A DNA stretch of 64,000 nt from Gammaproteobacteria bacterium (GCA_965222615.1 CBDCUI010000009.1:608001-672000), one strand, 5' to 3'. Counted from the stretch's first letter, positions 31,069-52,119 are shown. Numbers and translations: made by a program. Notes: generated from the sequence alone by a model not told the origin.

Positions 31069-32655
31069 TTATTTATATGTGTATTGGAGCATTAACCAGA
31101 ATTTTTCGGTATCGACGCAAAATAGAGGATCGCTACCAGCGCCAGTACCACAGTCTTCACTGTAATCCGCGTATTTTATTACTCCAAGTAAACCCTTCTT
31201 GCCAAAGAGATCCGGTTTACCCCATAGCAGATTCCATTCTTTACCATAGTCCGAAATTCTGCCATTAGGGCCCGTGAAAGTTTTATCTGTTTCAAAGTCA
31301 TGATAAGAGACAACAATCTTGTTTTTACCAATTACATTACCGAAAAGGCCCAAAATTGTAAGATTGACACTAGTATCTTCGATACCTCCTACAGGGGTTG
31401 CTGAACCGCCAGTGGGTCCAATGAATTTGTCTGCCCAACCCTGGAATGCATGAAATGTGGCAAGAGGAGTTTGCAAGGCATTCCCTCCATCACCCTGACC
31501 TTCCAGGACTTCCTTTCCTACTGTAATTTGGAATGTAGGCTCACCAATAGGCATGAGACCTAAACCATCGACCCGGGTGCCACCAAATCTCACACCTAGC
31601 TCAATGTTGTAATAATCATTGTCGTCAAAATCGACGACTTCTACACCTGCACCGTTCTCACCTGCATCACCCTTTGGATCTTGGTTGGCCCATTCGAACT
31701 CAGTTAATAAATCAAGTGAGTCACCCAAAGCATGTTTGCCCGTCCATCTGGCACCAATAGTATCGGAATCAAATACAACGGGTGGCACAGGGCCTAGTGC
31801 AAATGGCACTCCTCCACCCTCTTGAAATGGTGTTCTATCATTATCTTCGAAATCGAGTAAATAACCATATGCTACAAGCTTACCGATATCCGGGAAAGTA
31901 TAGGAAGCATTTATAAGATGTGCGTCATCCATTTTCCATTCATTAAAAACGGATTTCTCACCAAAAGTACGCTTAACCTTATTGAGATAGGAATAGGATA
32001 GACTAAGGTTTTTGATTGATGTGTTGTCTATACGCAAAGCATCAATGGACACAAAATTATTGCGCCAAAGAATGTTACCCACCCAGCGATGATTATCATA
32101 TATGATTTCTTGGCGTCCTAGTTTGAATGAGGTGTTACCACTACAAGGGTCTGGCGAATTTGGACAACCTCCTGTATGGCTGCGCCAGCCAAGGTAGAAT
32201 TCGTTTATTTCTTCATATTCATTGTCAGGAATAATGGAATGGCCTGCTGCTATACGAGATCCGACTGGACCTGGTGGAATCCTGAAATCGTCATCGAGAT
32301 TGAGAGCATTGTCATCACCTAAAGGTCTACCTGCTTCAAACTCACCACGAAGATAAAAGCCGTGGTAACGGGCCGTAGTCCACCCCCCCACAACACGAGC
32401 AGTTAACTGTTCCGCTGTATCCGCACTGGCAATGGGTGATCCTGCCGATATGTCATCATCCACCTCTTCGTGTCGAAGCCTTAACCTCATATGCGGTTCG
32501 CCATGAACGAGTGCCCTACCTAAAGAATCAGCGGCCGGTAAAAATTTTCCTCGATGTGTATTAGGAATATCAGTCAGGCCCACTGCTGAAACTCCCTGAG
32601 CGATTAAAAAGATGGTGGTTGCCACCAGATAAGAAAGGGGTGTAAATTTGGCCAT
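31069..32655 (-). CDS. Outer-membrane beta-barrel porin (alginate-export-like family)
   Basis: Signal peptide; KLGRQEI, QTPLATFHAFQGWADKF, C-terminal KFWLMLQYTYK beta-signal-like. Confidence 0.8.
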   Translation of the reverse strand: MAKFTPLSYLVATTIFLIAQGVSAVGLTDIPNTHRGKFLPAADSLGRALVHGEPHMRLRLRHEEVDDDISAGSPIASADTAEQLTARVVGGWTTARYHGFYLRGEFEAGRPLGDDNALNLDDDFRIPPGPVGSRIAAGHSIIPDNEYEEINEFYLGWRSHTGGCPNSPDPCSGNTSFKLGRQEIIYDNHRWVGNILWRNNFVSIDALRIDNTSIKNLSLSYSYLNKVKRTFGEKSVFNEWKMDDAHLINASYTFPDIGKLVAYGYLLDFEDNDRTPFQEGGGVPFALGPVPPVVFDSDTIGARWTGKHALGDSLDLLTEFEWANQDPKGDAGENGAGVEVVDFDDNDYYNIELGVRFGGTRVDGLGLMPIGEPTFQITVGKEVLEGQGDGGNALQTPLATFHAFQGWADKFIGPTGGSATPVGGIEDTSVNLTILGLFGNVIGKNKIVVSYHDFETDKTFTGPNGRISDYGKEWNLLWGKPDLFGKKGLLGVIKYADYSEDCGTGAGSDPLFCVDTEKFWLMLQYTYK

Positions 32656-32816
32656 GAATGCTTCTCCTCCCTTGAAGATTTAAGCCGGATCTTTCACGTA
32701 TTTACCCGGCCACGTACAGTCGATTGAATCTGATTTTTTTATATTTTTTATATACTGACTTTATGGGTCATAACATTTACTTAATGATCAATATAAAAGA
32801 ATAGCGCGTTATTCGT

Positions 32817-32856
32817 CCAAGACTTTGTTGTTATTGAACCCATAGGAGTTGACTAT
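32817..32856 (-). promoter_or_regulatory. LysR/CynR-type operator upstream of porin
   Basis: Gene strand ATAG-N7-CTAT-gggttca-ATAA-ca-ACAAAGTCTT. Confidence 0.75.
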
Positions 32857-33055: not shown

Positions 33056-33940
33056 ATGACGCACCGTTTTTATATAGTTGATGTGTTTACTGAACAACCT
33101 TACACCGGAAACCCGCTTGCGGTTGTTGTTATGGCAAAATCACTATCAGACGAAACCATGCAAAAAATTGCAGCGGAGATGAATTTTTCTGAAACCACTT
33201 TCGTGGCAACAACACCAGAAGATAATGGTGGATATCGTGTGCGAATATTTACACCTGCACGAGAAATTGATTTTGCTGGACACCCAATTCTCGGTACAGC
33301 ACAAGTCATTCGCCAATATCTTACTAATGAATCAAGTTCACAAATATTATTAAATCTCTCTAAGAGTCTGATACCAGTTAACTTTGAACATTTCAGCAAT
33401 GAGAGTGAAGTTGCCTGGTTTCTTGCACCACCAATGAAACTTGGCAAGGAATCTGCTCGCGAGCCTGTCGCAACTGCACTTGATTTAGCACCTGATGACA
33501 TTGATATCAGAACACCAATACAAGTAGTTTCTGCAGGTACTTCGGCGATGATTGTTCCACTAAATACTATGCAAGCACTACAGCATAGCCAACTAAATTT
33601 AGAAAAATTTGCCGTTTTAGCTGCTGAAGGTTTTCCACCTTTAATATATCTTTTTTGCCAACAAACACATCACCCCGAGAATGATTTATGTGCAAGATTT
33701 TTCTTTGAGGCGCATGGAGTACGTGAAGATCCAGCAACCGGAAATGGCGCAGCCTTTCTTGGAGCATATCTGTTGAAACATCGTTATTTCTCTAAATCCG
33801 ATTTATCACTACGAATTGAACAAGGTTATGAAATTCACCGGCCATCGTTGGTGAGGTTACGTGCACGAATACAAAATGGAAGTAGTGATATACAGGTTGG
33901 CGGTCATGTCATTCCAACAGTGCAAGGTCAACTTCTTTAA
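33056..33940 (+). CDS. PhzF-family isomerase
   Basis: VDVFT..GNPLAV, NFSETTF, FAGHP, EDPATG. Confidence 0.92.
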   Translation: MTHRFYIVDVFTEQPYTGNPLAVVVMAKSLSDETMQKIAAEMNFSETTFVATTPEDNGGYRVRIFTPAREIDFAGHPILGTAQVIRQYLTNESSSQILLNLSKSLIPVNFEHFSNESEVAWFLAPPMKLGKESAREPVATALDLAPDDIDIRTPIQVVSAGTSAMIVPLNTMQALQHSQLNLEKFAVLAAEGFPPLIYLFCQQTHHPENDLCARFFFEAHGVREDPATGNGAAFLGAYLLKHRYFSKSDLSLRIEQGYEIHRPSLVRLRARIQNGSSDIQVGGHVIPTVQGQLL

Positions 33941-34208
33941 CACCGTTTTGAATACCAAGCAATGTCAAACACGATAAGAACCTATAGTACTTATACACAA
34001 CTTTACCTTATGCTAAATTTCATATTAATTGGAGTTTTACATACGCTAATTAAAATATATTTATTAAAGAATAAGTGCATGTATGACTCTTGACTGGTAA
34101 AATTTAACCTAGTTCAGATAGCAATTAGTAACTTAGAGTACAACCTATTTTTTTAGGTACTTTGATAAAATCAAGAGTAACGAGCAAGATAATATCTTGT
34201 AATAACTT

Positions 34209-35225
34209 GTGCTCATTTTAGGTTGGGAGATGATAGGAGGTGTAAGAATGTTTAAAAATAAAACGAACGGGTCCACCTTTTTTCTTGCATTAGGATTAAT
34301 TTTTCTTGTCCTCCCTTCAACTGGGCAAACTGGAGATAAGAATTTTGCGCCAACTATCGCATACCAAATGGTCGAGTTAGTACACGATGAAATTGAGCTA
34401 ATACGAAAACACAAACAAACGCCTGTTGATACACGTGCTAGTTTTCCTGTAGAACATGTTTTCCCCAGAGAAGTGTATTTCCAAGCCCTTACCTTACGAC
34501 AAAAGGCAGGGCGCCTTTGTCATGAAACCACTCAATTTTTATTAGCGCCTCCCGCTGCTGTACAGTTTTCGATTCCAAAAACAATCACTCCTGAAGACGT
34601 ATACGATATTGTCAATGACGCGTGGAGCCAAATTCGTTGTGCTAAGGCTGGCCTAAACATAAGTGAAGAAATCCAGCAATCGGCAAAACAAGGCACGGCT
34701 AAGACACTCACAGATGTGTTTAAGTCAATTGTTCAAGCGAATCGGCAGTTAAATTTAATATTAGAACAACCTATTGAACCAGGAGATGTATATGCCGTCG
34801 TTCAACATGCGAATGCGTATATAGTTGATATACTTGACAAATTAGCACCGGTGTGGAGTTTAACCGCACCCACACTTCCAGAGTATCAAGCAGGTAAAAG
34901 GCCCATCGATATCTACAAACAAATGCTAAAGAACTTCAGGATTATCGAACAAATATCAAAGGATTCTGGAATCGATATGCTGAGTTTAGGACCAGAAATA
35001 CAAACACCGATTACAACTACAGATGTTTTTGATTTGAGTTCTCTTATCCTTTCTGAACTAAGTTATTTTGCAACACAACTTGGCATAAATCGGATTTACA
35101 GATTGGAATCTCATCCTGACAAAGTTCCTTCTGATGTGTATCAGCAAGCACAAATTGTAGAGGCTCATCTAGAAATATTGGAGGGTTTTACCAAGAAGTA
35201 TCCGACTTGGACTAAATTAGAGTAA
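34209..35225 (+). CDS. Exported hypothetical protein with internal PxDVY helical repeats
   Basis: Signal-like TM; seven PxDVY/TDVF-type motifs; start uncertain. Confidence 0.7.
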   Translation: MLILGWEMIGGVRMFKNKTNGSTFFLALGLIFLVLPSTGQTGDKNFAPTIAYQMVELVHDEIELIRKHKQTPVDTRASFPVEHVFPREVYFQALTLRQKAGRLCHETTQFLLAPPAAVQFSIPKTITPEDVYDIVNDAWSQIRCAKAGLNISEEIQQSAKQGTAKTLTDVFKSIVQANRQLNLILEQPIEPGDVYAVVQHANAYIVDILDKLAPVWSLTAPTLPEYQAGKRPIDIYKQMLKNFRIIEQISKDSGIDMLSLGPEIQTPITTTDVFDLSSLILSELSYFATQLGINRIYRLESHPDKVPSDVYQQAQIVEAHLEILEGFTKKYPTWTKLE

Positions 35226-35358
35226 TATAACTTTTAGTTAAACAACAATTTAATTTTACTTTTGTATAAGAAAGCTTAATGCCATAAATCTAATTAGCTG
35301 ATAGTAAGCATGCGTGACTGAATATCTATCCATAGGGATCTAAACTAAAATCAGGTAT

Positions 35359-35739
35359 ATGGACAGCTATACCGTCTTAAAAAATATTCATATCGCGACT
35401 GTATTGATTTCAATTGCAGGATTTTTTTTACGCGGAATTTGGATGATGCAATCTTCTTCCAAACTACTACATCGTTGGACAAAAATTGCACCACATATTA
35501 ACGATACAATTTTACTATTATCTGCAATTGCCTTAGTTTTTATTACAGCTCAATATCCAGGGCCAACAACGTGGCTAAATACAAAAATTATAGCTTTAGT
35601 AGTCTATATAATATTAGGAACAATTGCTCTTAAGCGCGGCAAGACGATGAGAACACGTGTTATTGCATGGTGTCTAGCATTGATGACGTTTATATATATT
35701 ATTATGGTAGCAATCAACAAAAACTCTTTGCCAATTTAA
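35359..35739 (+). CDS. SirB2-family membrane protein
   Basis: LKNIH, IAPHINDTILLLSA, WLNTKIIALVVYIILG. Confidence 0.9.
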   Translation: MDSYTVLKNIHIATVLISIAGFFLRGIWMMQSSSKLLHRWTKIAPHINDTILLLSAIALVFITAQYPGPTTWLNTKIIALVVYIILGTIALKRGKTMRTRVIAWCLALMTFIYIIMVAINKNSLPI

Positions 35740-35870: not shown

Positions 35871-36053
35871 TTAGTGACAAGGAAAACCTTGCGAATGGCG
35901 AATATCATGTGCCGCATTATGCATAGCTGCTGTGTTTACAAAACCCGCACCATACAAAATGACACAGCCAAGTAAAAACGCACATGCAATCTGCAACGGT
36001 TTCGAAATCGACCTTGTATGCAAAATAGTTTCAGTTGTAGTCTGATTCTGCAT
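35871..36053 (-). CDS. cbtB: Cobalt transporter subunit CbtB (copy at end of scn operon)
   Basis: TM followed by HNAAHDIRHSQGFPCH. Confidence 0.9.
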   Translation of the reverse strand: MQNQTTTETILHTRSISKPLQIACAFLLGCVILYGAGFVNTAAMHNAAHDIRHSQGFPCH

Positions 36054-36103: not shown

Positions 36104-36946
36104 TCACGTATGGTGCCAACTAAAACGTTTAATGAGCATTGAACACGAACTATCTAAAATGTAACCCATTATTCCAATGGTTAGCACCATTGCGGTGAGG
36201 TGGTCATAGGATAAAGTTTCACGCGCATCTGCGATAGAGTAGCCTAGGCCTGAAGTCACACCCAAAAATTCTGCTGGGACAAGTACAATCCAAGCAACAC
36301 CAAGCGCAAGACGTACACCTGTCAGAATATCGAACATAATTGCAGGCAAAATAATTTGCGTGACCATATGCCAAGGCTTAGCCCCTAAATTACGCGCAAC
36401 TTTGAACCACGCAGGATCTACCTTGGCGAGCCCTGCAGCAGTTGCAAACACGATTGGCCATACTGCTGCAATTGCAATAAGAAATACGATTGCGCCATTC
36501 CAGGTAGTAAACACAATTACCGCAATCGGCTCCCAGGAAAGCGGGCTGATCATACGAATCAATTGAAATGGGGAGTTGCTTAGTTCTCGGAATATTTTGC
36601 TACGCCCTAGGAGAATACCGATCGGTACTCCAACGATGATAGCAATAAGTAATCCAATACCTAGTCGATAACCACTAGTTTTAACTGCTGCTTGGATCTT
36701 ACCTTCTGCCAATAATTCCGGAAATGCTTGGAACGTTGGAATAGGCCCGAAATCTTTAAAGTTTGTAGTATTGGGATTTATCTCAATTAAATAACCACCA
36801 ATCCACCAAAGCACAAATAAAATCGCAAGGCCCGCAGCCCAATTAAACAAGCTCCTACCCATCGACTTGGCAATAGCCGAGCTTTGAACAGCATTTATAG
36901 ATTCAATAGCACCTATTTCAGCTGTTTTATCAGTTCCATTACTCAA
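36104..36946 (-). CDS. Nitrate/sulfonate/cyanate-type ABC permease
   Basis: RMISPLSW, VARNLGA, GVAWIVLVPAE. Confidence 0.9.
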   Translation of the reverse strand: MSNGTDKTAEIGAIESINAVQSSAIAKSMGRSLFNWAAGLAILFVLWWIGGYLIEINPNTTNFKDFGPIPTFQAFPELLAEGKIQAAVKTSGYRLGIGLLIAIIVGVPIGILLGRSKIFRELSNSPFQLIRMISPLSWEPIAVIVFTTWNGAIVFLIAIAAVWPIVFATAAGLAKVDPAWFKVARNLGAKPWHMVTQIILPAIMFDILTGVRLALGVAWIVLVPAEFLGVTSGLGYSIADARETLSYDHLTAMVLTIGIMGYILDSSCSMLIKRFSWHHT

Positions 36947-38238
36947 AGCTCAAATACCTCGGTACGAATGTATGGATCACCTTCTTTGGGTACGCTAGCG
37001 TCGTTTCTCCATTTTGGATTCGCTTCAAGAGCGGTCTTGATAAAATCATAATTAACCAAGTCATCCGAAACATGTTCTGGAGTAAGCGTATCAAGAAACT
37101 TAGCGTCACCTGTAACCACAGTCTCTTTTAAGTCACTAACCACTAACTCGGTAGCAGATCTATATGGCCATGCTTGAAAATCGATGCGGTTTTGATCCCA
37201 TTCAGGATGTTTAATCGCAAGAGGATTTTGATAGTAAGCAGGATCGTAAAACATCATAGCCCTTTTCACTACTTCTTTCGGAACTGGCAAATACCCTTTA
37301 CCATCTTTAGAAAGTCGTTCAGCCATTGCCTCTCTATTTTCAGCAAGATGAATCTGAGCTTTTACTACAGCATTATGCACACCTTGTGCCCATGCAGCAC
37401 GATCAGGATCCATTGCATCTTCCTCATGCATAACAACGACACAACATGGATGTCCTTTCCATGCATCACCAGTGAAACGTAAAACTTTACCACCGGCTTT
37501 AAGCTCACCTAAAGCATTGAATGGTTCTGCCACGCAATAACCATCAATGGTTCCTGCTGCAAGCGCGGGTGGCATAGACGGTGGCGCCAATACTAAGAAA
37601 TTACACTCGTCGGGTTCGAGCTTGGCACTTTGCGGTTTAATCACCGGTTTAATCCCAGCCGCTTTCATAATTCTTTGGGATACGATGTTATGAATCGAAT
37701 ACCAATACGGTACTGCAAACTGTTTACCACCAAAATCTTTTGGCTCATTAATGCCGCTATTCTTACCGACAAGGACCGCAGAACCATTAGTATGATCCCA
37801 CGCCGTAATCTTAATTGGATATTTGTTGTTATAACGCATCCAAACTGGAATAGGGATTAACATGTGCGTAAGGTTGAAACGATGCGCGGCAAAGGCCTCT
37901 ACCAAAGGTGACCAACCACGAATAAGTGTAGGCTTAACCGACTCAAGACCTTCATCTTTAAAATAACCTTGGTCATGCGCGATCAACAAAGCTGCCGCAT
38001 CGGTAATGGGTATGTAACCGATTTTAATCACCGGATCCCATTTTTTCTTTGCTGCAAAAATAGGCATAGGCAATGAGCTCGCACCTCCCGCCAGTGCCGC
38101 GAGACCTCCTACTTGTAACAGTTCACGCCGGTTAATACCGGTACCTAAAACACCTTTAAAAAGTGGATCAAATTCTATAGCAAGTTTAGGATCATCATTT
38201 TGGATCCCATCACCATGTTTCTGGTAAATTTTCTTCAT
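36943..38238 (-). CDS. NrtA/CmpA/CynA-type ABC substrate-binding protein (Tat-like signal)
   Basis: INRRELL twin-Arg; IGYIPITDA, AVPYWYSIHN, VAEPFNA, HPCCV. Confidence 0.9.
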   Translation of the reverse strand: MKKIYQKHGDGIQNDDPKLAIEFDPLFKGVLGTGINRRELLQVGGLAALAGGASSLPMPIFAAKKKWDPVIKIGYIPITDAAALLIAHDQGYFKDEGLESVKPTLIRGWSPLVEAFAAHRFNLTHMLIPIPVWMRYNNKYPIKITAWDHTNGSAVLVGKNSGINEPKDFGGKQFAVPYWYSIHNIVSQRIMKAAGIKPVIKPQSAKLEPDECNFLVLAPPSMPPALAAGTIDGYCVAEPFNALGELKAGGKVLRFTGDAWKGHPCCVVVMHEEDAMDPDRAAWAQGVHNAVVKAQIHLAENREAMAERLSKDGKGYLPVPKEVVKRAMMFYDPAYYQNPLAIKHPEWDQNRIDFQAWPYRSATELVVSDLKETVVTGDAKFLDTLTPEHVSDDLVNYDFIKTALEANPKWRNDASVPKEGDPYIRTEVFEL

Positions 38239-38338: not shown

Positions 38339-39169
38339 TCAATTGCCAGCAAACTCGGCATTTGATGCAGAAGTATCCCCATTATCCATCTGGGCATTTT
38401 CTTTTGGCGCCCCCGCTGCATCGTGAAAAATTTGCATAAGGTGAGTACGCATTTTCTGAACTGCAGGATCTTGTCGATCACGTGGATCTGGAAGATCCAC
38501 TCTGAGATCATGAACCATCTTGCCGGGCGAACCGGCCATCACTAGCGCACGATCTGCCATGATTACTGCTTCGTCTATATCATGTGTCACCATGACTAAG
38601 TTAAAACCTAGCTGTTTAGAAATTGCGCGAACATCTTTTTGCAAAGATGCACGAGTAAACGCATCTAATGCAGAAAACGGTTCATCCAAAAGAAGCATTT
38701 CAGGCTCCATTACTAAAGAACGTGCTAAAGCTACTCGTTGTTGTTGCCCACCTGAGAGATCTTGAGTATTTTTTTTCGTATACTCTTCCATGTTAACCAA
38801 ACTAATTGCTTCGTTAACACGATCACGAATTTTATTTTTTGACCAACCAGCAAAACGTAATCCGGTACCGACATTTTGTTCAACCGTCATCCAGGGAAAT
38901 AGATGTGGAGCCTGAAACATCATCACCCATTTTGATGAAGGGTCTTTAACATCTTTATTATTTAACTGCACGGTACCACTGTAATTTCCCAACAAACCAG
39001 CGACGATGTGAAGTAAAGTGGACTTACCGCACCCGGAGCGACCGATAATGACAAGTGACTCACCGGGTTGTGCCTCCATATCCACTTTGTCAAAAGTAAG
39101 TGGACACTTTGAGTTATATCGGTGGGTAAGATCCTTTACATTAATATGTACACCATTGCGTTCTGCCAT
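38339..39169 (-). CDS. ABC transporter ATP-binding subunit
   Basis: GRSGCGKST, LSGGQQQR, LLLDEPFSALD; start set at ATG 39169. Confidence 0.92.
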   Translation of the reverse strand: MAERNGVHINVKDLTHRYNSKCPLTFDKVDMEAQPGESLVIIGRSGCGKSTLLHIVAGLLGNYSGTVQLNNKDVKDPSSKWVMMFQAPHLFPWMTVEQNVGTGLRFAGWSKNKIRDRVNEAISLVNMEEYTKKNTQDLSGGQQQRVALARSLVMEPEMLLLDEPFSALDAFTRASLQKDVRAISKQLGFNLVMVTHDIDEAVIMADRALVMAGSPGKMVHDLRVDLPDPRDRQDPAVQKMRTHLMQIFHDAAGAPKENAQMDNGDTSASNAEFAGN

Positions 39170-39334
39170 GTGTAATCCCTTCTGTAATATCGTAGTTTCG
39201 GACTGCCAACTACCTGGTTCAACGCTTAACCGGGAATTGAGCGCTCCCTTCAAACTGTGTTGATACATCAAGTAAGCTGCTCCATTCGACCTGTGTGGAT
39301 ATACTTGTTAATAAGACCGCTCTTTTTCATGAAA

Positions 39335-39697
39335 TTATTCAGCAATAATCTTGTCAGACCATTCAACGTCTTCAACAAAAGTATCAGGATTACCTGGTTG
39401 TGCACCTGCTTTTGCCATATCATCTTCTGTAACACCTCGTGCTCTTGAACATGCACCGCAACATTCAATTCGTACACCATTCTCAATAGCTTCATTCCAC
39501 TGCTCAGCCACCGAGGGCCACCCAAGTGGAACCATATTCTCACGAACCACTGGCCGTGCAAGACATACTGCTTCGCCTAGCAGAAATATTCGAATCTCAT
39601 GGCCCTTACCAGCCAATGCGTTAGCATGTCCAAACACCATCGCTGCTCGTGTTGGATCATCACTCCCCCATGATGACTTCATAAAAATCTTTGCCAT
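39335..39697 (-). CDS. DsrE/DsrF-like family protein
   Basis: DDPTRA, IFLLGEAV, CCGACSRARG (CxxC). Confidence 0.85.
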   Translation of the reverse strand: MAKIFMKSSWGSDDPTRAAMVFGHANALAGKGHEIRIFLLGEAVCLARPVVRENMVPLGWPSVAEQWNEAIENGVRIECCGACSRARGVTEDDMAKAGAQPGNPDTFVEDVEWSDKIIAE

Positions 39698-41901: not shown

Positions 41902-41941
41902 CCAAGACTTTGTATTTATAAATCCTATAGGAGTTACCTAT
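41902..41941 (-). promoter_or_regulatory. LysR/CynR-type operator between scnB and the LysR gene
   Basis: ATAG-N7-CTAT at 41927-41941 overlaps the LysR SD and start codon; followed on the scn strand by ATAA-at-ACAAAGTCTT. Confidence 0.8.
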
Positions 41942-43014: not shown

Positions 43015-44328
43015 TTATTTATTTGTAACCGCTACGTGAACTTCACCCTCTAAGACAGGCGGTAATGGCCCGCCCGTTGCCCAATCTAATAATTCAACAG
43101 TATGCACCACCGGTATTTTCGTAGCAGAGCCAATCTGTAACATACACCCTATATTACCTGCAGCAATGACATGTGGCGCACCAAGCTGCAGTGACTCAAC
43201 TTTACGCGCTCTTAACTGCTTTGAAATTTCGGGCTGCAAAAGGTTATAGGTACCAGCAGAACCACAACATGTGTGTGGATCTTTTGGTTCGAGTACAGTA
43301 AAACCCGCTGCTTTTAATAGCTTTTTTGGTGTAAACCTAATTCGCTGCCCAAATTGTAGTGAGCATGTGGCATGATAAGCCACGCGTAAATTGGGCATTG
43401 CCTTATAGTCCAAGTCGATTTTCGACAAAACTTCGGTAATGTCTTGAGCTAACGCAGAAATCGTCGCAGCATCTTGTGATAAATCACTATTTCGAAATAT
43501 CTCGACATAGTTTTTCACCATGACTCCACAGCCGCTAGCGTTGATCACCACTGCATCCAATCCTGCATCATTTACTTCTTTCATCCAGGCGCGAATGTTT
43601 TTCGCCGCCATCGCAAGACTTGGTTGAGACTTGCCCATATGGTAAGTCAACGCACCACAACAACTAGCGCCATCAGCAACGACCACTTCGCATCCATGAC
43701 GACGTAAAATGCGAATGGTTGCATTATTGATATTCGTATTCAGTGCCTTTTGCGCACAACCAGTCATCAAGACTACGCGACGCTTACATTCACCTTTTGC
43801 TGGAACAACTTGTGGTTCATCATTTGGGTTTGATGGCGATAACGTATTGGGCACCAACTCCAGCATTGCGCGCATTCTCTTGGGCAACGGACTGCTCGGC
43901 AATGACTTAGCTAATTGCCCCAAACGCATCATTATTCGCAAGCGTTTCGAGTAGGGCAAAATTTGTGCCAGGACCCAACGTTGGATGCGGTCAAATAGTG
44001 GGCGGTCATAGTTGTCCTCGATATATTCTCGGGCATGATCCACTAAATGCATATAGTTCACACTCGACGGACAGGTAGACATACACACTAAACAAGACAA
44101 GCAACGATCAATATGGTTGACGGTCTTTTTACTTGGCTCACCCCCATTCTCTAACATTTCCTTAATAAGATAAATGCGCCCACGTGGGCTATCAAATTCG
44201 TCTCCCAATAACTGATAAGTCGGACAGTTATTAATACAGTAACCACATTGCAAGCAGGCACTTAGCTCCACGTTAGACTGGGCCATAATAGGATTAGCCA
44301 GTTGTTCGGAAGTAAAATTGGTTTGCAT
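43015..44328 (-). CDS. glcF: Glycolate oxidase iron-sulfur subunit GlcF-like
   Basis: Two CxxCxxCxxxCP clusters, DSPRGRI, two CCG domains, GNIGC. Confidence 0.88.
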   Translation of the reverse strand: MQTNFTSEQLANPIMAQSNVELSACLQCGYCINNCPTYQLLGDEFDSPRGRIYLIKEMLENGGEPSKKTVNHIDRCLSCLVCMSTCPSSVNYMHLVDHAREYIEDNYDRPLFDRIQRWVLAQILPYSKRLRIMMRLGQLAKSLPSSPLPKRMRAMLELVPNTLSPSNPNDEPQVVPAKGECKRRVVLMTGCAQKALNTNINNATIRILRRHGCEVVVADGASCCGALTYHMGKSQPSLAMAAKNIRAWMKEVNDAGLDAVVINASGCGVMVKNYVEIFRNSDLSQDAATISALAQDITEVLSKIDLDYKAMPNLRVAYHATCSLQFGQRIRFTPKKLLKAAGFTVLEPKDPHTCCGSAGTYNLLQPEISKQLRARKVESLQLGAPHVIAAGNIGCMLQIGSATKIPVVHTVELLDWATGGPLPPVLEGEVHVAVTNK

Positions 44329-44526
44329 TGACCTATTCCATTTACTTATCAGAAAAACTTAACTTAACTATGAATTGTATTTTATAGCGCCACTTTAAAA
44401 AACTCATTTGACAAAATTTACAATCTATTTTTTCAACATTATTTAAAACTTTAAGAACAGATTCAAACCTATTAGCTATCGCTTAGGAAATAGAAACATT
44501 GGAGGAAACAACTAACTTTACACCCT

Positions 44527-44564
44527 ATTGTTAATCTCTATAGAGCTAATAAGAACAAAGTCTT
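44527..44564 (+). promoter_or_regulatory. LysR/CynR-type operator upstream of cynS
   Basis: ATTG-N7-CTAT-agagcta-ATAA-ga-ACAAAGTCTT. Confidence 0.75.
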
Positions 44565-44712
44565 TGATTTATACAGCCGTATCCCTAAAACTAGAATTAC
44601 CTGGCAAATTAGATTACTCAAATTTATTTAAATTTCCTCAAAAATAAATATTGGGATTGAGTTGCTATGTGATACCTGGCTATTGAAGATTACTTTTCAG
44701 CGAGGAGTCGAT

Positions 44713-45153
44713 ATGAATAAAGAAGAAATGACCGACTGCATTATTGCAGCAAAAAAAGCTAAAGGTCTCACCTGGGAAACCATTGCTCACAAAGTTGGTA
44801 AAGGCACAACCTGGGTAACCTCTGCTTGTTTAGGAATGAACAGCACCACTGAGGAAGTCGCAAAAAGCTTATGCGAAATTCTTGGGCTCGATGAAGATGT
44901 TTGTACAACATTACAAGAATATCCACACAAGGCATGGGACAAAACGATACCGCAAGATCCAGTAGTCTATCGATTTTATGAAATCGTTGGTGTCTATGGC
45001 GATACTATTAAAGAAATTATAGCTGAGAAGTTTGGGGATGGAATTATGAGTGCTATCGATTTTTCTATGGATATTGACAAAGAAGAAAACCCTAAAGGCG
45101 ATCGAGTGGTAATCACCATGAATGGTAAATTCTTAAAATATACTTCGTGGTAA
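44713..45153 (+). CDS. cynS: Cyanate hydratase (cyanase)
   Basis: DPVVYRFYE, EKFGDGIMSAIDF, GDRVVITMNGKFL; ATG 44713 behind GAGGAG. Confidence 0.96.
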   Translation: MNKEEMTDCIIAAKKAKGLTWETIAHKVGKGTTWVTSACLGMNSTTEEVAKSLCEILGLDEDVCTTLQEYPHKAWDKTIPQDPVVYRFYEIVGVYGDTIKEIIAEKFGDGIMSAIDFSMDIDKEENPKGDRVVITMNGKFLKYTSW

Positions 45154-45467
45154 TTGAACAAACGCTGATTTCTTTTTTTGAGCAAGTAGCTCAAAAAGAT
45201 ACAAGTCAATTAAACAAATTAAAACAAAATAAGTATTTCAGTGTAGAAAAGGAGCGCTGGTGTTTTACTTTGCCTGATTTATATGCCTTTCTGCGATTAC
45301 AAAATGATGACTTAAACGACATTGATTACCAACAATTTCGAAAATTAATTTTTAACAGTCCTATTAATCAAACCATTAAATCATATGGAGCTGAAATTAC
45401 GATTACAGACAATCAAACCAATGTCGATAAATCAAGCTATGCACTAGTCTGGAAAAGTATGAAATAA
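45147..45467 (+). CDS. Hypothetical protein overlapping cynS stop
   Basis: 106-aa ORF whose GTG start overlaps the cynS 3' end. Confidence 0.6.
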   Translation: MVIEQTLISFFEQVAQKDTSQLNKLKQNKYFSVEKERWCFTLPDLYAFLRLQNDDLNDIDYQQFRKLIFNSPINQTIKSYGAEITITDNQTNVDKSSYALVWKSMK

Positions 45468-45538
45468 GTTTTTATTTAATCTTAAGAATAAGTGAATTAA
45501 GCTCAAATTAATATTTTTCTCAGAACAGTTGACTATCA

Positions 45539-45808
45539 TTAATCCTCAGTACGACGTCGTTTGCTAGCATCTGCAAGATGCACAATTCCGTAAGAAATAC
45601 CAAAACCAATAAACAAAGATATTATAATCAAGACAATATTTGCTAAATTGATATCCCCGCCAAGTTTCGTATTCACATCAAAAATATTGGCTAAAATATT
45701 CATAGTCAGCAAAGCAATAAAAATACCTCCAAAAAAGAAAATGCGGAACGGCCTAGTGCCTGTTGTTATCACATCGACGACTATATCCCGCATTTTTCGT
45801 TTCATCAC
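45539..45808 (-). CDS. Small two-TM membrane protein
   Basis: Two hydrophobic segments with basic termini. Confidence 0.6.
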   Translation of the reverse strand: MMKRKMRDIVVDVITTGTRPFRIFFFGGIFIALLTMNILANIFDVNTKLGGDINLANIVLIIISLFIGFGISYGIVHLADASKRRRTED

Positions 45809-45923
45809 GTGTTTCGCTTTAACTCAAAAAACGTCTCCCGAAATATTATATTTATATTTACATGGTACAGTAATCGCTTATAAACCACATTTAGTAATCT
45901 AACAAGCGGCACTATTTTTACAT

Positions 45924-46706
45924 ATGTCCAACAAATTACAGAATACTAAAACTGATGTTCTACAGTTTGTTCATATCACAGATACTCATCTGCTGAATCA
46001 AGCAAATGAAACTTTTCATGGTTTAAATACAAAAAAAAATTTAGAGGCGGTTTTAAACCATTGTCAAATACGCTATCCAAACATAGATTTTTTGCTGTTT
46101 ACGGGTGATATTTCTCAAACAGGCGATGAGGCAAGTTATACAATCTTCAACTCAATAATACGCCAATATAAAATCCCCATTTACTGTATTCCAGGCAATC
46201 ACGACATCCCAAAATTTTTACAGCATATTATTCCAAGTTGTCCAAAGGAGACAATTAGAACGATTCAATTCGGTAAGTTTTCACTAATTTTATTAAACAG
46301 CTGGGTAGAAAACCAACACCACGGAATGATCTCTCAACATTGTCTGTTGGAATTAAAAAGTTTCCTGCAAAAAAATAGTGGACAATTTAATATTATAGCG
46401 ATTCATCACCCGCCCATAATAATTAACAGTAAGTGGCTTGATGAAATTGGCTTACAGAATAAAGCGGATTTTTTACAAGTCATTCATAAATATGCGCCAA
46501 ATTCATTACTGATATTTGGACATATTCATCAAGAAATCGACCAGCAGCAAGACTCACTGCGTTTCCTTTCTACACCATCTACCTGTCATCAATACAAAGC
46601 GAATTCTGAGTGCATGCAGTGTATTTTCACACCACCGCCTACATATCGATTTATAAAGCTAAACCCAACACATCATATTGAAACAAATCTTCATTATATT
46701 GAATAA
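45924..46706 (+). CDS. cpdA: CpdA-like cyclic-nucleotide phosphodiesterase
   Basis: ITDTHL, TGDISQ, PGNHD, HHPP, GHIHQ, TPSTCHQ. Confidence 0.85.
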   Translation: MSNKLQNTKTDVLQFVHITDTHLLNQANETFHGLNTKKNLEAVLNHCQIRYPNIDFLLFTGDISQTGDEASYTIFNSIIRQYKIPIYCIPGNHDIPKFLQHIIPSCPKETIRTIQFGKFSLILLNSWVENQHHGMISQHCLLELKSFLQKNSGQFNIIAIHHPPIIINSKWLDEIGLQNKADFLQVIHKYAPNSLLIFGHIHQEIDQQQDSLRFLSTPSTCHQYKANSECMQCIFTPPPTYRFIKLNPTHHIETNLHYIE

Positions 46707-46836
46707 GATAACCGCATGATTTAAACCAGAATCCTAACCCGTCTTCTACTGCCCACCATTAAAAACTTCTTGTCATAGCAGTCATTGACAAGACCTAGCA
46801 TATTTATGATCACAAGTAATAACGTAATTTCGATCT

Positions 46837-46874
46837 ATAGCCAATACCTATAGGTTTAATAAATACAAAGTATT
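46837..46874 (+). promoter_or_regulatory. LysR/CynR-type operator upstream of cbtBA
   Basis: ATAG-N7-CTAT-aggttta-ATAA-at-ACAAAGTATT. Confidence 0.75.
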
Positions 46875-47064
46875 CGGATTAATAAAACTTCTCCTTTAGA
46901 CTTAACCATTAGCTCAATTGAACAATCGATTAAATAAGTATATAAGCGAATTCTTAAATTTAACAGACAGCTCTTGATCTCAAAAAGTAAACAGATCTGC
47001 ATTTAGATTCGCGCCAAGATTTGTTTTAGATAATTTTAAGAATCAGAAGGAAGGAGAATTAGCG

Positions 47065-47262
47065 ATGAGTACAGTCAAAGAGGCAACCAGCTTGCTAACT
47101 CAAATCCAAACTGGTGAGATACCTTGGTCAACTATATATGCCGTTAGTGCAGCCATTCTCACTGGTGTATTCATTATTGCAGCCGTAGGTTTTGCTGGAC
47201 CAGAAGTTTTGCATAATGCTGCTCATGACATTCGTCATGGATTAGCTTTTCCTTGTCACTAA
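47065..47262 (+). CDS. cbtB: Cobalt transporter subunit CbtB
   Basis: TM followed by HNAAHDIRHGLAFPCH. Confidence 0.92.
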   Translation: MSTVKEATSLLTQIQTGEIPWSTIYAVSAAILTGVFIIAAVGFAGPEVLHNAAHDIRHGLAFPCH

Positions 47263-47283
47263 ACTTTTACAACCTCAATAACA

Positions 47284-47991
47284 ATGAAAACCTTTAATAG
47301 GATTTTTTTGTCGGCGCTATTTTCTGGTGTACTAGCCGGTCTAGTACTCGCAGGAATCCAACACTTTACCGTCATCCCAATGATTCTAGAAGCCGAAACC
47401 TATGAGACAACCGATACAAATGAAAATACAACTGCAATGAATCAAGAGGAAGAAGCCTGGGCACCTGAAGATGGTGCTGAAAGAACTTTTTATACGGCTA
47501 CGAATAGTATGATTGTTGGTATCGGGTTTGGTCTACTATTAGCAGCATGCTATGCATTTCGAGGCAGTGTTACTTGGGGCAAGGGCCTGTTATGGGGGCT
47601 TGCTGGTTTTGCCACATTTCACCTCGCGCCTTCTTTTGGTTTACCTCCAGAACTTCCTGGAGATGCTGCCGCTGGTTTGGAACAAAGACAAATTTGGTGG
47701 TTATTAACCGTAATTGTTACAGCAATGGGGCTTTGGATCATTGCTTTTCAACCAAAACATTATCTTAAATTATTCGGTGTAGCATTAATCATATTGCCGC
47801 ATATATTTGGTGCACCACAACCTGAAGTGCATGGAGGCTTAGCTCCGGAAGAGCTTAGAAATACTTTTATGTATACCTCTCTTGCTACAAACGCAATTTT
47901 CTGGATTGTGTTAGGAATGCTTAGCGCCTATTTTTACAATAGATTTGATAAACCTATAGAAAATACAGCAGTGAACGCTGCATTGAGTTAA
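47284..47991 (+). CDS. cbtA: Cobalt transporter subunit CbtA
   Basis: PMILEAETYE, WAPEDGAER, APSFGLPPELPG, PHIFGAP. Confidence 0.93.
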   Translation: MKTFNRIFLSALFSGVLAGLVLAGIQHFTVIPMILEAETYETTDTNENTTAMNQEEEAWAPEDGAERTFYTATNSMIVGIGFGLLLAACYAFRGSVTWGKGLLWGLAGFATFHLAPSFGLPPELPGDAAAGLEQRQIWWLLTVIVTAMGLWIIAFQPKHYLKLFGVALIILPHIFGAPQPEVHGGLAPEELRNTFMYTSLATNAIFWIVLGMLSAYFYNRFDKPIENTAVNAALS

Positions 47992-48213
47992 CTGAAAAAG
48001 AGTAATAAGAACAGATTTGAGTAGCTAGGTCTTTTATCTATTCAAGAATAAGAATATTCATTAGAGAACTAAATCTAGCTTTTTAAAATATTTGAAGAAA
48101 AATTATTTTCCCAATACTCAGAGCGTACTTGGTCTAAGTACGCATACGCACGCTAATTAAACAAAGGAGTTTAGTGTGGTAACAACTAGACTTCTTCATT
48201 AGCGAGAATAACT

Positions 48214-48228
48214 ATAGATAATAACTAT
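48214..48228. promoter_or_regulatory. Possible fifth LysR core site upstream of TonB receptor
   Basis: ATAG-ataataa-CTAT, lacking the downstream ACAAAGT box. Confidence 0.4.
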
Positions 48229-48337
48229 GGGAACATATTGAATAATAGGTAAAAACTAATAAAAAATACGCGCAAAAACTTAACAAATGTTTCTGCGGTG
48301 AGTATCACGACCACTTAAATGGTATGAGGAACTATAC

Positions 48338-50671
48338 ATGCCTTTGGAAAATAACAATAAATTAAAATTTAATTTTTTAAAATTCGTCATCGCTATATTT
48401 TTTAAACGAAAAAAAATATTAGTAGTTCATAATACTTACATTAAAAACGTATCTTTTTTTTCTGTAGTCATAATTTTTTCATTTGTAAGTTTAAGCACAG
48501 TCGCAATTGCAGAAGAAAGTGTCCAACTAGAAGATATGATAGTTGAAGACACTAAAATCCTAGAGTTCGACCAGCCAGGTGAGTTGCATCTTGTAACTCC
48601 AAGTGAAACAGGGACAAGGTTAGGCTTAACTCCATTAGAAACACCAGCTTCTGTTGAAATAATTGATCAAACAAACATAGAACGAATAGGTGCGCAGAGT
48701 ATCGGGGATGCATTAATTACGCTTCCAGGAGTGACGGTGGGTGAATCTCCCGCAGCACCTTCAAGCTTTTCTATGCGTGGATTTACTAGAAGCCAAATTA
48801 CTTTATTACGAGATGGAATATGGTTAGGGCCCGCAAATATGGTAAGTAGGCCACAGAACGCATGTAATTTGGATCGTCTTGAATTAATCCGAGGTCCAGC
48901 ATCTGGTTTACACGGACAAGGATCAGTTGCAGGTGCTATAAATTCGGTAACGAAAAAGGCACGTGAAACAGATAATTATAATCATGGTGCGCAATTGTTC
49001 TATGGTCGGTGGGACACTTACCAAGTGTGTGGTGGTAGTGCAGGACCAGTTGCGGATTCTCTTTGGTATCAATTTGATATTAGTCAAAATGGGGCTGATG
49101 GCTTTGTTGATGATATGGATCCTGAATCGACAAATATTAATGGCAGTTTATTGTGGAAACCTAAAAATAATCTTTCTGTCAGATTTAGTGCGGACTACTT
49201 AGATGATGAATTAGCAAACTACTGGGGTACACCTCTAGTGCCTGCAAGTGTCGGCACAGATCGAATAAGTGGTGTCATCGAAACGGCTGCGGGTGAAGTA
49301 TTAGATGAGCGCACTCGTGATGAAAATTACAATGTGTCTGATTATGAAGCTGAGTCCGATCAAATATTGATGCGCACAGATTTGGAATGGATGCCACTAA
49401 GCAATGTTCGTGTAAGAAACACGCTGTACTACTTTGATGCGGATCGCGATTGGTTTAACGCAGAAGGATTTATTTATAATGATTTGACTGACTTGATTGA
49501 CCGAACGAATGGATTTTTCTTTGTTCAACATGAACAAGAAATGTGGGGTGGCAAGCTAGATATCACCACTGATCACCAATTATTTGGCAAAGATAATCAA
49601 TTTGTATTTGGTGTTGATTATCAGGATCTTGATTTTGAACGCACACGTGGGTTTCGTTTCTCTGCAGTACCAGGTGACTCTGTCGATCTATTTGATCCGG
49701 TTCAAGGTGTCTATGGACCGGTGGAACCAAGAGGGGTTAGTCCTACAGATATAAATACCTGGGGAGTGTTTTTTGAAGATGCATTGCAAGTAACTGATAG
49801 ATTCAGTTTAGTCACCGGGCTACGTTATGAGCAACTACATTTACGACGGCAAAATTTTGATTTACGCCCGGGGAATGTCGGAAATGATGAGGGAAGTGGA
49901 TTTACACGCAACTTTGATTCTGTGGGTTGGCGTGTTGGTGGTGTGTTTTCTTTAACACCTAATATAAATGTTTATGCACAATACAGTAATGCACAAGACC
50001 CAGTGAATTCTAATATTTTTCTTGTGAATGATGGTGAAGATTTTGATCTCACTGATGCTGAGCAGTGGGAAGTCGGATTAAAAGCGAGGAATATTGATAA
50101 TTCATTAAATTTTACAATCGCATACTTTGACATTGAGCGAGATGATGTCTCTGAACTCATTGGTGTTGATAGTGCAGTGAATGTGGGTGGCAGAAAATCC
50201 AAAGGATTTGAAGCAGCAATTAATTATGCACCAACTTCCTATCTAGATGTGGCTGCGAATATCGCCTATGTTGATGCGGAATTCGAAGACTCTGTGAACT
50301 TTGTAACATTTGCTGGTAATACACCACCCAACGTACCGGATTGGACAGCAAATGCCTGGGTCAATGTCCGGCCCTTTCAAACGTTTCCAATAGAATTTGG
50401 TGCATGGTATCGCTATGTGGATGATCGCTATGGTACAAATGATAATACTGCAATTTTGAAAGATTATTCATTACTAGATCTGTCTGCAACCTACAGGTTT
50501 CGAGATAATTTAGATATCACAGCTCGTGTGCGAAATGCCATGGATGAAGATTATGTTGCTTGGGCTGATGTATTTTATTTTCAACAGACTGATCCTGGTT
50601 TTCCATTTGCCAATCAAGTCTTGTTGGGCGAACCAAGAAGTTATGAGTTAAATCTTGTGTTACGGTATTAG
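48338..50671 (+). CDS. TonB-dependent outer-membrane receptor
   Basis: ETPASVEII, SMRGF, LELIRGPASGLHG plug motifs; C-terminal GEPRSYELNLVLRY. Confidence 0.93.
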   Translation: MPLENNNKLKFNFLKFVIAIFFKRKKILVVHNTYIKNVSFFSVVIIFSFVSLSTVAIAEESVQLEDMIVEDTKILEFDQPGELHLVTPSETGTRLGLTPLETPASVEIIDQTNIERIGAQSIGDALITLPGVTVGESPAAPSSFSMRGFTRSQITLLRDGIWLGPANMVSRPQNACNLDRLELIRGPASGLHGQGSVAGAINSVTKKARETDNYNHGAQLFYGRWDTYQVCGGSAGPVADSLWYQFDISQNGADGFVDDMDPESTNINGSLLWKPKNNLSVRFSADYLDDELANYWGTPLVPASVGTDRISGVIETAAGEVLDERTRDENYNVSDYEAESDQILMRTDLEWMPLSNVRVRNTLYYFDADRDWFNAEGFIYNDLTDLIDRTNGFFFVQHEQEMWGGKLDITTDHQLFGKDNQFVFGVDYQDLDFERTRGFRFSAVPGDSVDLFDPVQGVYGPVEPRGVSPTDINTWGVFFEDALQVTDRFSLVTGLRYEQLHLRRQNFDLRPGNVGNDEGSGFTRNFDSVGWRVGGVFSLTPNINVYAQYSNAQDPVNSNIFLVNDGEDFDLTDAEQWEVGLKARNIDNSLNFTIAYFDIERDDVSELIGVDSAVNVGGRKSKGFEAAINYAPTSYLDVAANIAYVDAEFEDSVNFVTFAGNTPPNVPDWTANAWVNVRPFQTFPIEFGAWYRYVDDRYGTNDNTAILKDYSLLDLSATYRFRDNLDITARVRNAMDEDYVAWADVFYFQQTDPGFPFANQVLLGEPRSYELNLVLRY

Positions 50672-50679
50672 TATGCAAA

Positions 50680-52119
50680 ATGCAGTATTTTATACTCATT
50701 CATCGCTGGATCGGGGTAGGATTATGTTTATTTTTTTCTGCTTGGTTTTTGAGTGGTATGGTTATGATATTTCAACCATACCCCTCGCTAAGTGAAGCCG
50801 AAAGACTTAAACGCAGTGAAGTAACCCAGTATTCGAAAGACTTATTATCGATATCTGAACTAAAGTCTTTTCAACAAGAAAGCCCATCTAAGGTTACGCT
50901 GATCAGTAAGCTCGATGAGCCTTATTTTTGGTGGAAAAGCGAAGCAAATTCGCGAATTACTGTGGTTAATGCGATCACAGGTGATACGCCCAATTTTAAA
51001 CCAGATCAAATACATAAGATAGCAAATAACTTTTATCCAGACAAAACCGTTGAAACAATTAATGTTGGAATTGAATATGATCAATGGATTGTTAGCAACC
51101 GTTTTGATCCTTACCGGCCTTTTTATCGAGTTGAGTTTGATGATGTAGCGCGTACAAACATTTATATCTCAAGCCGCAATGGTCAAATTTTGCAAGAAAC
51201 TAATCGATCGCAGCGCATATGGAATTATTTTGGAGCCGTTGTTCATTGGATTTATCCTACTGTCATACGTAAAAACTGGATCCTGTGGGATCAACTTGTA
51301 TGGTGGTTAGCTTTAGCAGGTATTGTCAGTGCAATTACAGGGTTAACGTTGGGATTGATTAAATCTATTCGTGCACAAAGTGGATGGTCAGATTATAGCG
51401 GTTGGCTATATTGGCACCATTTAGGCGGGCTTATTGTTGGATTGTTAGTTTTAAGCTGGATATTTAGTGGTTGGTTATCCATGGATCATGGACGCATATT
51501 TTCAAAACCGAATCCAACAACTGAACAAATACAGGCATTCCACGGTGTACCGCTGAGTGGAGTGGTAAATAGTTTGCCGGAATTTGAACCAGCTTATTCT
51601 TCCAATATTAATGAAATTGAATTGCGAGTCATTGCAGGAGAACCTTATTTATTGAGCAAGTCTTACACTGAAGGTAACCAAACCTGGTTGTTAAATTCAG
51701 AAGGTCATTGGCAGCAGCAAGACCAAGGATTGCCATATCAATTATTACGCAAAGCTGTTATGTCTACATGGCCTGATTTAGAAATAGCTGGATTCTTTAA
51801 AATCGAAAATGATGATGTCTATGCTCATCTACGCGAAAGTCAAATGTCATCAAATGTTCTACGAGTCGTATTAAGTGATCCTGAAAAAACCTGGGTCCAT
51901 GTTGACAGTATTTCGGGCGAAATAATCTCAATAATGGATTCTGGACGTAGAACTTATAGATGGTTATTCAATGGACTGCACAGTCTTGATTTCCCTAGTT
52001 TAATTTCGCGGCCTGCGTTGTGGTACTGCGTAATATTGAGTTTACTCGGGCTGGGCACATTATTCAGTTTTACTGGTGCAATAGTTGGTATCCGCCGCCT
52101 ATTAAAAGGCAGATTCTAG
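50680..52119 (+). CDS. PepSY-associated TM helix protein
   Basis: HRWIG, GAVVHWIY, WHHLGG, WLFNGLHSLDF; last 3 codons and stop come from the IS30 end. Confidence 0.88.
   Translation: MQYFILIHRWIGVGLCLFFSAWFLSGMVMIFQPYPSLSEAERLKRSEVTQYSKDLLSISELKSFQQESPSKVTLISKLDEPYFWWKSEANSRITVVNAITGDTPNFKPDQIHKIANNFYPDKTVETINVGIEYDQWIVSNRFDPYRPFYRVEFDDVARTNIYISSRNGQILQETNRSQRIWNYFGAVVHWIYPTVIRKNWILWDQLVWWLALAGIVSAITGLTLGLIKSIRAQSGWSDYSGWLYWHHLGGLIVGLLVLSWIFSGWLSMDHGRIFSKPNPTTEQIQAFHGVPLSGVVNSLPEFEPAYSSNINEIELRVIAGEPYLLSKSYTEGNQTWLLNSEGHWQQQDQGLPYQLLRKAVMSTWPDLEIAGFFKIENDDVYAHLRESQMSSNVLRVVLSDPEKTWVHVDSISGEIISIMDSGRRTYRWLFNGLHSLDFPSLISRPALWYCVILSLLGLGTLFSFTGAIVGIRRLLKGRF

Follow-up and report, generated by a model that had tools for sequence, protein, structure and literature searches.

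By what route does thiocyanate (SCN-), an industrial pollutant from gold mining and coking, enter a bacterial cell that carries an enzyme for its hydrolysis? The question is raised by a locus at positions 31069 to 52119 of a 64,000-nucleotide stretch of DNA from a Gammaproteobacteria bacterium (GCA_965222615.1, CBDCUI010000009.1:608001-672000; the whole stretch is called the window here), in which genes for a thiocyanate hydrolase (scn) are joined to those of an ATP-binding cassette (ABC) transporter in one long unit on the minus strand, ordered scnB, scnA, scnC, activator, dsrE-like gene, ABC ATPase, binding protein, permease and cbtB. As far as the sequence allows us to judge, this is probably a thiocyanate catabolic operon of the carbonyl sulfide (COS) pathway that has its own ABC importer, CynR-type regulator, activator, CbtAB proteins and cyanase, and SCN- is the best reading of the substrate that the transporter would carry. 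A search of the literature found no defining paper on the cellular uptake of thiocyanate, and a full-text search found none that characterises the scn-linked transporter or measures its cargo, in agreement with the remark of an initial annotation that such a function of the ABC system is not known to be biochemically defined. Every gene named in that annotation was recovered at or near its assigned coordinates when the open reading frames (ORFs) of the window were listed and scanned against Pfam and NCBIfam (those of at least 70 amino acids between 28 and 55 kb, and of at least 110 amino acids elsewhere).

The hydrolase is encoded by three genes. The first, scnB (41311-41742, -), specifies the beta subunit, equivalent to the N-terminal half of nitrile hydratase beta (PF21006, E 4e-18), and scnA (40950-41318, -) specifies the alpha subunit, equivalent to the C-terminal half (PF02211, E 5.1e-21); the scnA ORF spans 40950-41381, with a likely ATG at 41318 that overlaps the end of scnB. 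The NHase_beta_N and NHase_beta_C domains thus lie on separate, adjoining ORFs, and this split beta subunit is the feature that distinguishes thiocyanate hydrolase from the nitrile hydratases. The catalytic gamma subunit, the product of scnC (40196-40891, -), reaches 392.7 bits on TIGR03887, the curated model for thiocyanate hydrolase gamma, where 291.45 suffice; on TIGR01323, the model for nitrile hydratase alpha, its 207.6 bits fall short of the required 249.85. When compared with the solved enzyme of Thiobacillus thioparus, ScnC matches 2dd4_C at 430.9 bits (E 1.1e-128), ScnB matches 2dd4_B at 228.3 bits (E 2.6e-67, residues 1-141) and ScnA matches 2dd4_A at 204.3 bits, in an alignment that begins at residue 23 of the ORF. 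The metal motif of ScnC, VCTLCSC, aligns identically to 2dd4_C and is invariant among 22 aligned homologues. With all three chains matched, the claim that this is a true thiocyanate hydrolase appears sound, and the ScnABC proteins of the window would form a non-corrin cobalt enzyme that converts SCN- to COS and ammonia. Judged by eye, none of the three subunits has a signal peptide, so the enzyme is probably cytoplasmic.

The transporter genes follow in the same unit. Behind a DsrE-like gene (39335-39697, -; PF02635, E 8.9e-15) come the ABC ATPase (38339-39271, -; PF00005, 122 bits; start codon uncertain), the gene of a periplasmic substrate-binding protein, and the permease (36104-36946, -; PF00528, 78.9 bits), whose first 4 nt coincide with the last 4 of the binding protein gene. 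A profile search seeded with the binding protein and confined to one genome per species returned 196 relatives, the best 80 of which were analysed; homologues of all window proteins were sought at these 80 loci by tblastn (E <= 1e-5, at least half of the query aligned), and the locus counts given below refer to this set. The nearest relatives of the window locus among these best 80 come from records of uncultured Gammaproteobacteria and Thiotrichales, and among the related loci are many whose records carry the label of clam or sponge symbionts, for example Thiodiazotropha and Poriferihabitaceae. The ABC ATPase is present in 79 loci, always immediately upstream of the binding protein gene, and the permease gene is present in 79 as well. 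In 75 loci, scnC, activator, ATPase and binding protein keep the same contiguous and co-directional order, an arrangement far beyond chance, and the order of the operon holds while the surrounding genes vary. Homologues of the DsrE-like protein occur in 19 loci, mainly those of the closest relatives; the gene is a lineage-specific insert between the activator and the ABC genes. The initial annotation had offered the co-occurrence of the binding protein with scn as a check on its reading, and such linkage is indeed found, with scnC within 10 kb in 76 of the 80 loci and in 52 of the 53 that have full 10-kb flanks; the ABC genes are an integral part of a conserved operon.

The four loci that lack scnC comprise three short contigs (2.7-6.3 kb) and L032, from a Thiodiazotropha record. 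L032 has IS4-like and IS1595 transposases right beside its ABC genes, and its binding protein is near-identical to that of a scn-linked Thiodiazotropha locus. This locus (L032, 2597-16358) is the sole full-length locus without scn, and in it five transposase genes (two IS4-like, two IS1595 and an IS3-like fragment) surround a porin, the ABC genes, a DsrE-like gene and an SQR-like gene.

The family of the binding protein (36943-38238, -; PF13379, NMT1_2, 128 bits) bears on what the transporter carries. Its homologues at 71-95% identity number more than 120. A profile of its wider family matches NrtC (8wm7_C, E 1.3e-51), CmpC (4e-50), NrtA (2g29, 2.2e-46) and CmpA (2i48, E 7.8e-42), all of which bind small planar anions, and matches TauA (5e-19) and SsuA (4e-11) far more weakly. 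Its best NCBIfam match, SsuA_fam, lies below the cut-off (83.2 against 163.5), as do its match to the TauA model (30.3 against 304) and that of the permease to ntrB (123 against 209). According to PMC10945777, Lys269 of NrtA, or Lys480 of NrtC, may set the specificity for nitrate. In our alignment, Lys480 of 8wm7_C falls on residue C266 of the window protein, which is the second Cys in its H(P/A)CC motif, and this replacement of Lys by Cys argues against nitrate as the substrate.

The scn-linked binding proteins group as a single clade (support 100/100) in an unrooted maximum-likelihood tree. Alphaproteobacterial, betaproteobacterial and gammaproteobacterial records are intermixed within it, a pattern consistent with transfer of the cassette between classes. 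The clade also has a mark of its own, in that the twin-arginine motif stands behind a conserved N-terminal extension of about 35 residues (38134-38238, -), and the pattern DP.L...DP.F..LG.G in this extension is confined to scn-linked binding proteins; sisters at 22-47% identity do not have it. Such an extension ahead of the RR motif is unusual for a twin-arginine translocation (Tat) signal. The median identity among the loci is 76.5% for the binding protein and 69.4% for the ATPase, and because the loci were picked by likeness to the binding protein, we do not use its conservation as evidence. Since the Scn subunits are without a visible signal peptide, whereas the binding protein has the RR motif of an exported one, SCN- would have to be imported to reach the enzyme.

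Between scnC and the DsrE-like gene, directly after scnC, lies a gene for an accessory protein of 133 amino acids (39792-40193, -), with homologues in 76 loci and in both of the plasmid scn loci described below. Its product has a weak match to NHase_beta_N (E 0.0036) and an atlas score of 0.95 to clusters auto-named thiocyanate hydrolase beta family. A predicted complex of this protein with ScnC scored 0.90 against 0.50 for the best control, on a mark passed by 58 of 80 complexes of solved structure and by 2 of 110 mismatched pairs; at least 87% of contacts were shared between runs, with a partner pLDDT (predicted local distance difference test) of at least 85, and the predicted interface takes in ScnC residues 119-123, the metal site. 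This agrees with the annotation as an accessory gene: the product is beta-subunit-like, and in the predicted complex it covers the metal site of the gamma subunit. A role as a P15K-type activator, or as a chaperone that loads the gamma subunit with cobalt, is likely. The activator model for cobalt nitrile hydratase, as given in PMC3511329, fits the 133-amino-acid protein.

The regulator is transcribed in the opposite direction from scnB. This LysR-type protein (41940-42980, +) scores 356.6 bits against the CynR model NF008416 (cut-off 277), and a CynR homologue is present in 66 loci, in 56 of which it is divergent from and adjacent to scnB. Within the 197-bp scnB-cynR intergenic region of the window lies a conserved 10-mer (41900-41909), which reads AGTCTTGGGA on the scn strand and is AGTCTTGG[A/G]A[C/T]-like. 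The sequence GTCTTGGA recurs with at most one mismatch in 47 of 57 such intergenic regions, drawn from three proteobacterial classes, and in most of them the 10-mer stands at the same distance from cynR; we regard it as a candidate operator for the CynR homologue. A scan for promoters and terminators was uninformative: 32 sites resembled promoters where 49.2 were expected, and 20 resembled terminators where 14.2 were expected. On the far side of the regulator is cynS, the cyanase gene (44662-45153, +; TIGR00673, 176 bits against a cut-off of 113.3), and a cyanase gene is found within 10 kb in 41 loci.

Cobalt for the enzyme may be supplied by Cbt proteins. A lone cbtB (35871-36053, -; PF09489, 69.9 bits) is the last gene of the operon, and a second cbtB (47065-47262, +; PF09489, 59.6 bits) is paired with cbtA, which encodes a putative cobalt transporter subunit (47284-47991, +; TIGR02458, 252 bits against 182.9). 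In other loci, cbtB and cbtA come directly after the permease gene. Cobalt transport by CbtAB is itself a proposal for the entire family, whose model is a hypothetical equivalog. No cobalamin riboswitch was found upstream of cbtBA at the gathering threshold, nor at E <= 1 in 44300-48400, which fits, weakly, the use of cobalt outside corrin. The initial annotation had assigned metal loading to Cbt and the activator, and had listed nearby a TonB-dependent receptor (48338-50671, +) with a PepSY_TM protein (50680-52119, +). The proposed part of Cbt gains from recurrence, some Cbt gene being present in 42 of the 80 loci; membership of the TonB receptor and the PepSY protein in the module, and with it a part in cobalt supply, is not supported, as homologues near the operon occur in none of the 80 and the receptor exceeds the cut-off of TIGR01783, a model of siderophore receptors (233 against 223.5). 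Nor can the module be called complete, as it had been: no COS hydrolase, beta-carbonic anhydrase or sulfide-oxidation gene is among the scanned ORFs of the window, and COS hydrolase and sulfide oxidation would therefore be encoded elsewhere in the genome.

The porin of the initial annotation is a protein of 528 amino acids (31069-32655, -) with a signal peptide, as judged by eye, and an atlas score of 0.98 to Alginate_exp clusters. It falls below the Pfam cut-off for Alginate_exp (E 0.0046; 16.2 against 25.2), while the homologue in L032 lies above it (26.9). The best structural matches of its structure model are OccAB2 (5dl6, E 6.7e-9), AlgE (3rbh, E 1.1e-7) and the OprD family, with query-normalised TM-scores (template modelling scores) of 0.43-0.50 to the 18-strand channels of the Occ, OprD and AlgE types. 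The model favours an outer-membrane beta-barrel of the specific-channel type. Linkage to scn is limited, with homologues in only 23 loci, directly after cbtB in L011 and L015. Another cluster, L028, holds an unrelated OprD-type fragment. In the window, the genes of a PhzF-family isomerase, a 338-amino-acid protein and SirB (33056-35739, +) intervene between the porin gene and the scn operon.

The sequence itself establishes which enzyme this is, to which family each component belongs and that the linkage of the genes is conserved; from these we infer the transported substrate, what the porin does, how cobalt arrives and what the regulator senses, and we propose the following course. Thiocyanate would enter across the outer membrane, for which the AlgE/OprD-like channel is the probable passage in this lineage, and in the periplasm it would be caught by the Tat-exported binding protein of the NrtA/CmpA clade. 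The ABC system would then pump it into the cytoplasm, where the cobalt enzyme ScnABC would cleave it to COS and ammonia. The 133-amino-acid beta-like protein would dock on the gamma subunit and load it with cobalt supplied by CbtAB, and the neighbouring cyanase would clear cyanate.

The cargo of the transporter can be read in other ways. It might be a CynABD-like importer of cyanate, a dual importer of cyanate and thiocyanate, or an importer of bicarbonate, which feeds the cyanase and owes its place among the scn genes to a shared regulon. Such a reading draws on the score of the regulator as a CynR equivalog, on a cyanase within 10 kb in about half of the loci, on the nitrate and bicarbonate bound by the NrtA/CmpA clade, and on related ABC cassettes that adjoin cynS in Marinobacter and Burkholderia. 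We hold it unlikely, if worth keeping in view, because in 75 loci the ABC genes appear to be co-transcribed with scnBAC and not with cynS, because cyanase is absent within 10 kb in 39 loci, and because a cytoplasmic hydrolase would still need import of its anion, for which the operon has no other candidate importer. It is less probable still that the cargo is another small sulfur or nitrogen compound (a sulfonate, a nitrile or an organic thiocyanate) on which an Scn-like enzyme would act: alignment of the subunits with the T. thioparus enzyme, whose biochemistry is established, gives 204-431 bits, ScnC lies above the cut-off of the curated model for thiocyanate hydrolase, and the profile matches of the binding protein to NrtA/CmpA (E 1e-42 to 1e-51) far exceed those to TauA (5e-19) and SsuA (4e-11), even though the SsuA family is its best NCBIfam match (83 bits, sub-cut-off) and sister cassettes adjoin genes of the acyl-CoA-dehydrogenase family.

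The linkage might also be without functional meaning, the ABC genes merely riding with scn as one cassette that moves horizontally. The 21-kb region lies between genes for transposases of the IS3 family (29766-30922, -) and of IS30 (52212-53198, +), and its core (36-44 kb) has a guanine-cytosine (GC) content of 0.42-0.44 against 0.34-0.41 across most of the window; the remainder of the window carries housekeeping genes. Together with the mixing of classes in the binding-protein tree, these features suggest that the block is mobile or lies in a plastic region. Hitch-hiking would account for insertion sequences around both the window region and L032, for a GC content above that of the flanks, and for a tree in which alpha-, beta- and gammaproteobacterial binding proteins are mixed. 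Unselected genes would be expected to get lost or shuffled, whereas order and orientation are kept in 75 loci over three classes with varying neighbours, and the binding protein remains at least 71% identical; we therefore give this explanation very little credence.

Several points nevertheless weigh against a dedicated thiocyanate importer. The 80 loci were chosen by likeness to the binding protein, all of them at 71% identity or more, and the remaining 116 relatives lie outside the survey. A CynR homologue with a cyanase nearby would fit a cyanate importer equally well. Loci with scn and without the transporter were sought in a plasmid collection only, which yielded two scnC loci, in Roseomonas marmotae (L081) and Azospirillum ramasamyi (L082), at 66-67% identity. 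Both have a fused scnB-scnA, which bears the label 'SH3-like domain-containing protein', then scnC, a homologue of the activator that has no annotation, and either CbtBA or HupE/UreJ, and in both an ABC system of the scn type is absent within 9 kb, so that the transporter is not obligatory for scn loci. TauE/SafE genes are near both plasmid loci, a ClcA gene is near that of Roseomonas, and insertion sequences surround both. The replacement of Lys by Cys in the binding protein was considered as a signature of thiocyanate and rejected, as H(P/A)CC is near-invariant across the wider family, down to 22% identity. The structure models also temper the reading: the AlphaFold model of the binding protein is too poor for use (mean pLDDT 48), that of the porin is of moderate confidence (mean pLDDT 57, predicted TM-score 0.62), and the prediction of the ScnC complex may have passed through memory or likeness, because the partner resembles a beta subunit and the beta-gamma complex has been solved.

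The relatives of the cassette outside scn loci are a further point of this kind. Sister binding proteins at 41-59% identity stand in cassettes of ATPase, binding protein and permease beside a gene of the acyl-CoA-dehydrogenase family in all six loci examined (L083-L088), which lie on plasmids of Pseudosulfitobacter, Methylocystis, Marinobacter, Synechococcus elongatus PCC 7942 (pANL), Agrobacterium and Bartonella. An OsmC, CMD or DUF4242 gene is present in five of the six, and Marinobacter also has a cyanase gene, at the end of the cassette. A Burkholderia plasmid (L089) has the same enzyme set and a cyanase gene around a different binding protein of NrtA type. The acyl-CoA-dehydrogenase family includes desulfonating flavoenzymes, and the sister cassettes may represent an undescribed pathway for a small sulfur or nitrogen anion. 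One could go further and propose that the scn-linked clade and its sisters together are importers of thiocyanate or pseudohalides, that the sisters mark an undescribed flavoenzyme route which removes the sulfur of SCN- to give cyanate, and that the scn operon took its importer from this older system; as a whole, this extension of our reading is speculative, and we consider it doubtful.

Other genes recur around the operon with lower frequency. Two of them, a lone GlcF-like gene that separates cynR from cynS (43015-44328, -) and a gene for a protein of 106 amino acids (45147-45467, +), were not in the initial annotation. The GlcF-like iron-sulfur protein (NF008434, 426.7 bits against 333) has two CCG domains and two 4Fe-4S motifs, and its gene is found in 25 loci, beside cynR or cynS, 19 of them at 60% identity or more. 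A role as glycolate oxidase was considered and set aside, GlcD and GlcE being absent from the ORFs of the window and from the regions upstream of the homologues in L028 (4063-5376), L036 (4086-5396) and L047 (5377-6678). In these three loci, the GlcF-like gene ends a unit that has a methyltransferase gene and, besides it, a hydrolase or porin gene; two of the three have a cyanase gene, and cbiM heads two of the units. The 106-amino-acid protein is of no known family, with no match in Pfam or NCBIfam, and has homologues in 31 loci, usually beside cynS; because its start lies in the stop region of cynS, the gene is probably translationally coupled to cynS. A CpdA-like phosphoesterase gene lies between it and the cbtB-cbtA pair. 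Homologues of the PhzF-family isomerase (33056-33940, +) lie within 10 kb in 19 loci, and in betaproteobacterial records the gene is often between cynS and cynR.

Elsewhere in the window, a gene for a Ras/Roc-type small GTPase (60934-61437) stands between those of a hybrid histidine kinase with an Hpt protein and of a PhoB-type response regulator (59071-62375, -), and such a signalling neighbourhood of GTPase and histidine kinase is uncommon in bacteria. At 12306-13257 (-), a HopJ type III effector domain (PF08888, 164 bits) is encoded in an ORF that adjoins a DUF938 methyltransferase-like gene. A bacterial small signal recognition particle (SRP) RNA (28778-28875, -) overlaps the start of the annotated dnaX ORF, so that translation of dnaX probably begins downstream of the GTG at 28800. 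Apart from this RNA, Rfam yields at its gathering threshold only a tRNA gene (55932-56020, -).

While the operon itself will not surprise specialists, its binding protein, which lies inside the hydrolase operon in 75 of 80 species-level records, would be the first thiocyanate-specific receptor of the periplasm, a role for which it is a clean candidate. Both the hydrolase and the cyanase are transcribed in a lucinid clam symbiont (PMC11171427), and this transcription, together with the many symbiont records among the related loci, suggests that thiocyanate may be a commoner source of nitrogen or sulfur in marine symbioses than generally supposed.

How does the locus compare with known systems? 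The cyanate system of Escherichia coli is cynR-cynTSX. The window shares with it the CynR equivalog and the cyanase, both above curated cut-offs, whereas the regulator of the window diverges from scnB and not from cynT-cynS, and the window has neither carbonic anhydrase nor CynX. The NrtC and CmpC domains align with the window binding protein at the Trp of GWSPL and at the SxHN and EPFN motifs. NrtA is anchored as a lipoprotein. In contrast to NrtABCD and CmpABCD, the window has a twin-arginine motif on its binding protein and single genes for ATPase and permease within the scn operon, and its ABC system is in neither a nitrate nor a carbon-concentrating context. As for the activator, Kataoka et al. 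are said to have described P15K in 2006 as an activator of thiocyanate hydrolase; like P15K and the nitrile hydratase activators, the 133-amino-acid protein is small, beta-like and encoded right after the metal-subunit gene, a likeness of gene position and beta-subunit character.

The closest comparison is with the cultured thiocyanate oxidisers themselves. The hydrolase of T. thioparus THI115 (2dd4, 2dd5 and other entries) likewise has three subunits, the gene order beta-alpha-gamma and the CTLCSC site. The T. thioparus locus, according to PMC5328954 (Berben et al. 2017), has scnABC, a hypothetical gene, four ABC genes of the NitT/TauT type, a DsrE-like gene, tusA and sqr, with cyanase, methylase and cobalt transporter genes in its upstream part, and the same paper gives a similar scn layout for Thioalkalivibrio thiocyanodenitrificans. 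That the scn operon is conserved is also stated in PMC5458468, which credits this to Kantor et al. 2015, and PMC8061750 speaks of 'the necessary transporters'. The joint layout of scn and ABC genes is therefore already published, and the window is a further example of it. The window differs from the loci of T. thioparus DSM 505 and T. thiocyanodenitrificans in that it is without downstream tusA or sqr and belongs to a genome of low GC content (about 0.36-0.44); its cobalt system is CbtAB, a further cbtB stands alone as the last gene of the operon, and it adds to the shared plan the AlgE/OprD-like porin, the lone GlcF-like gene and the 106-amino-acid gene coupled to cynS.

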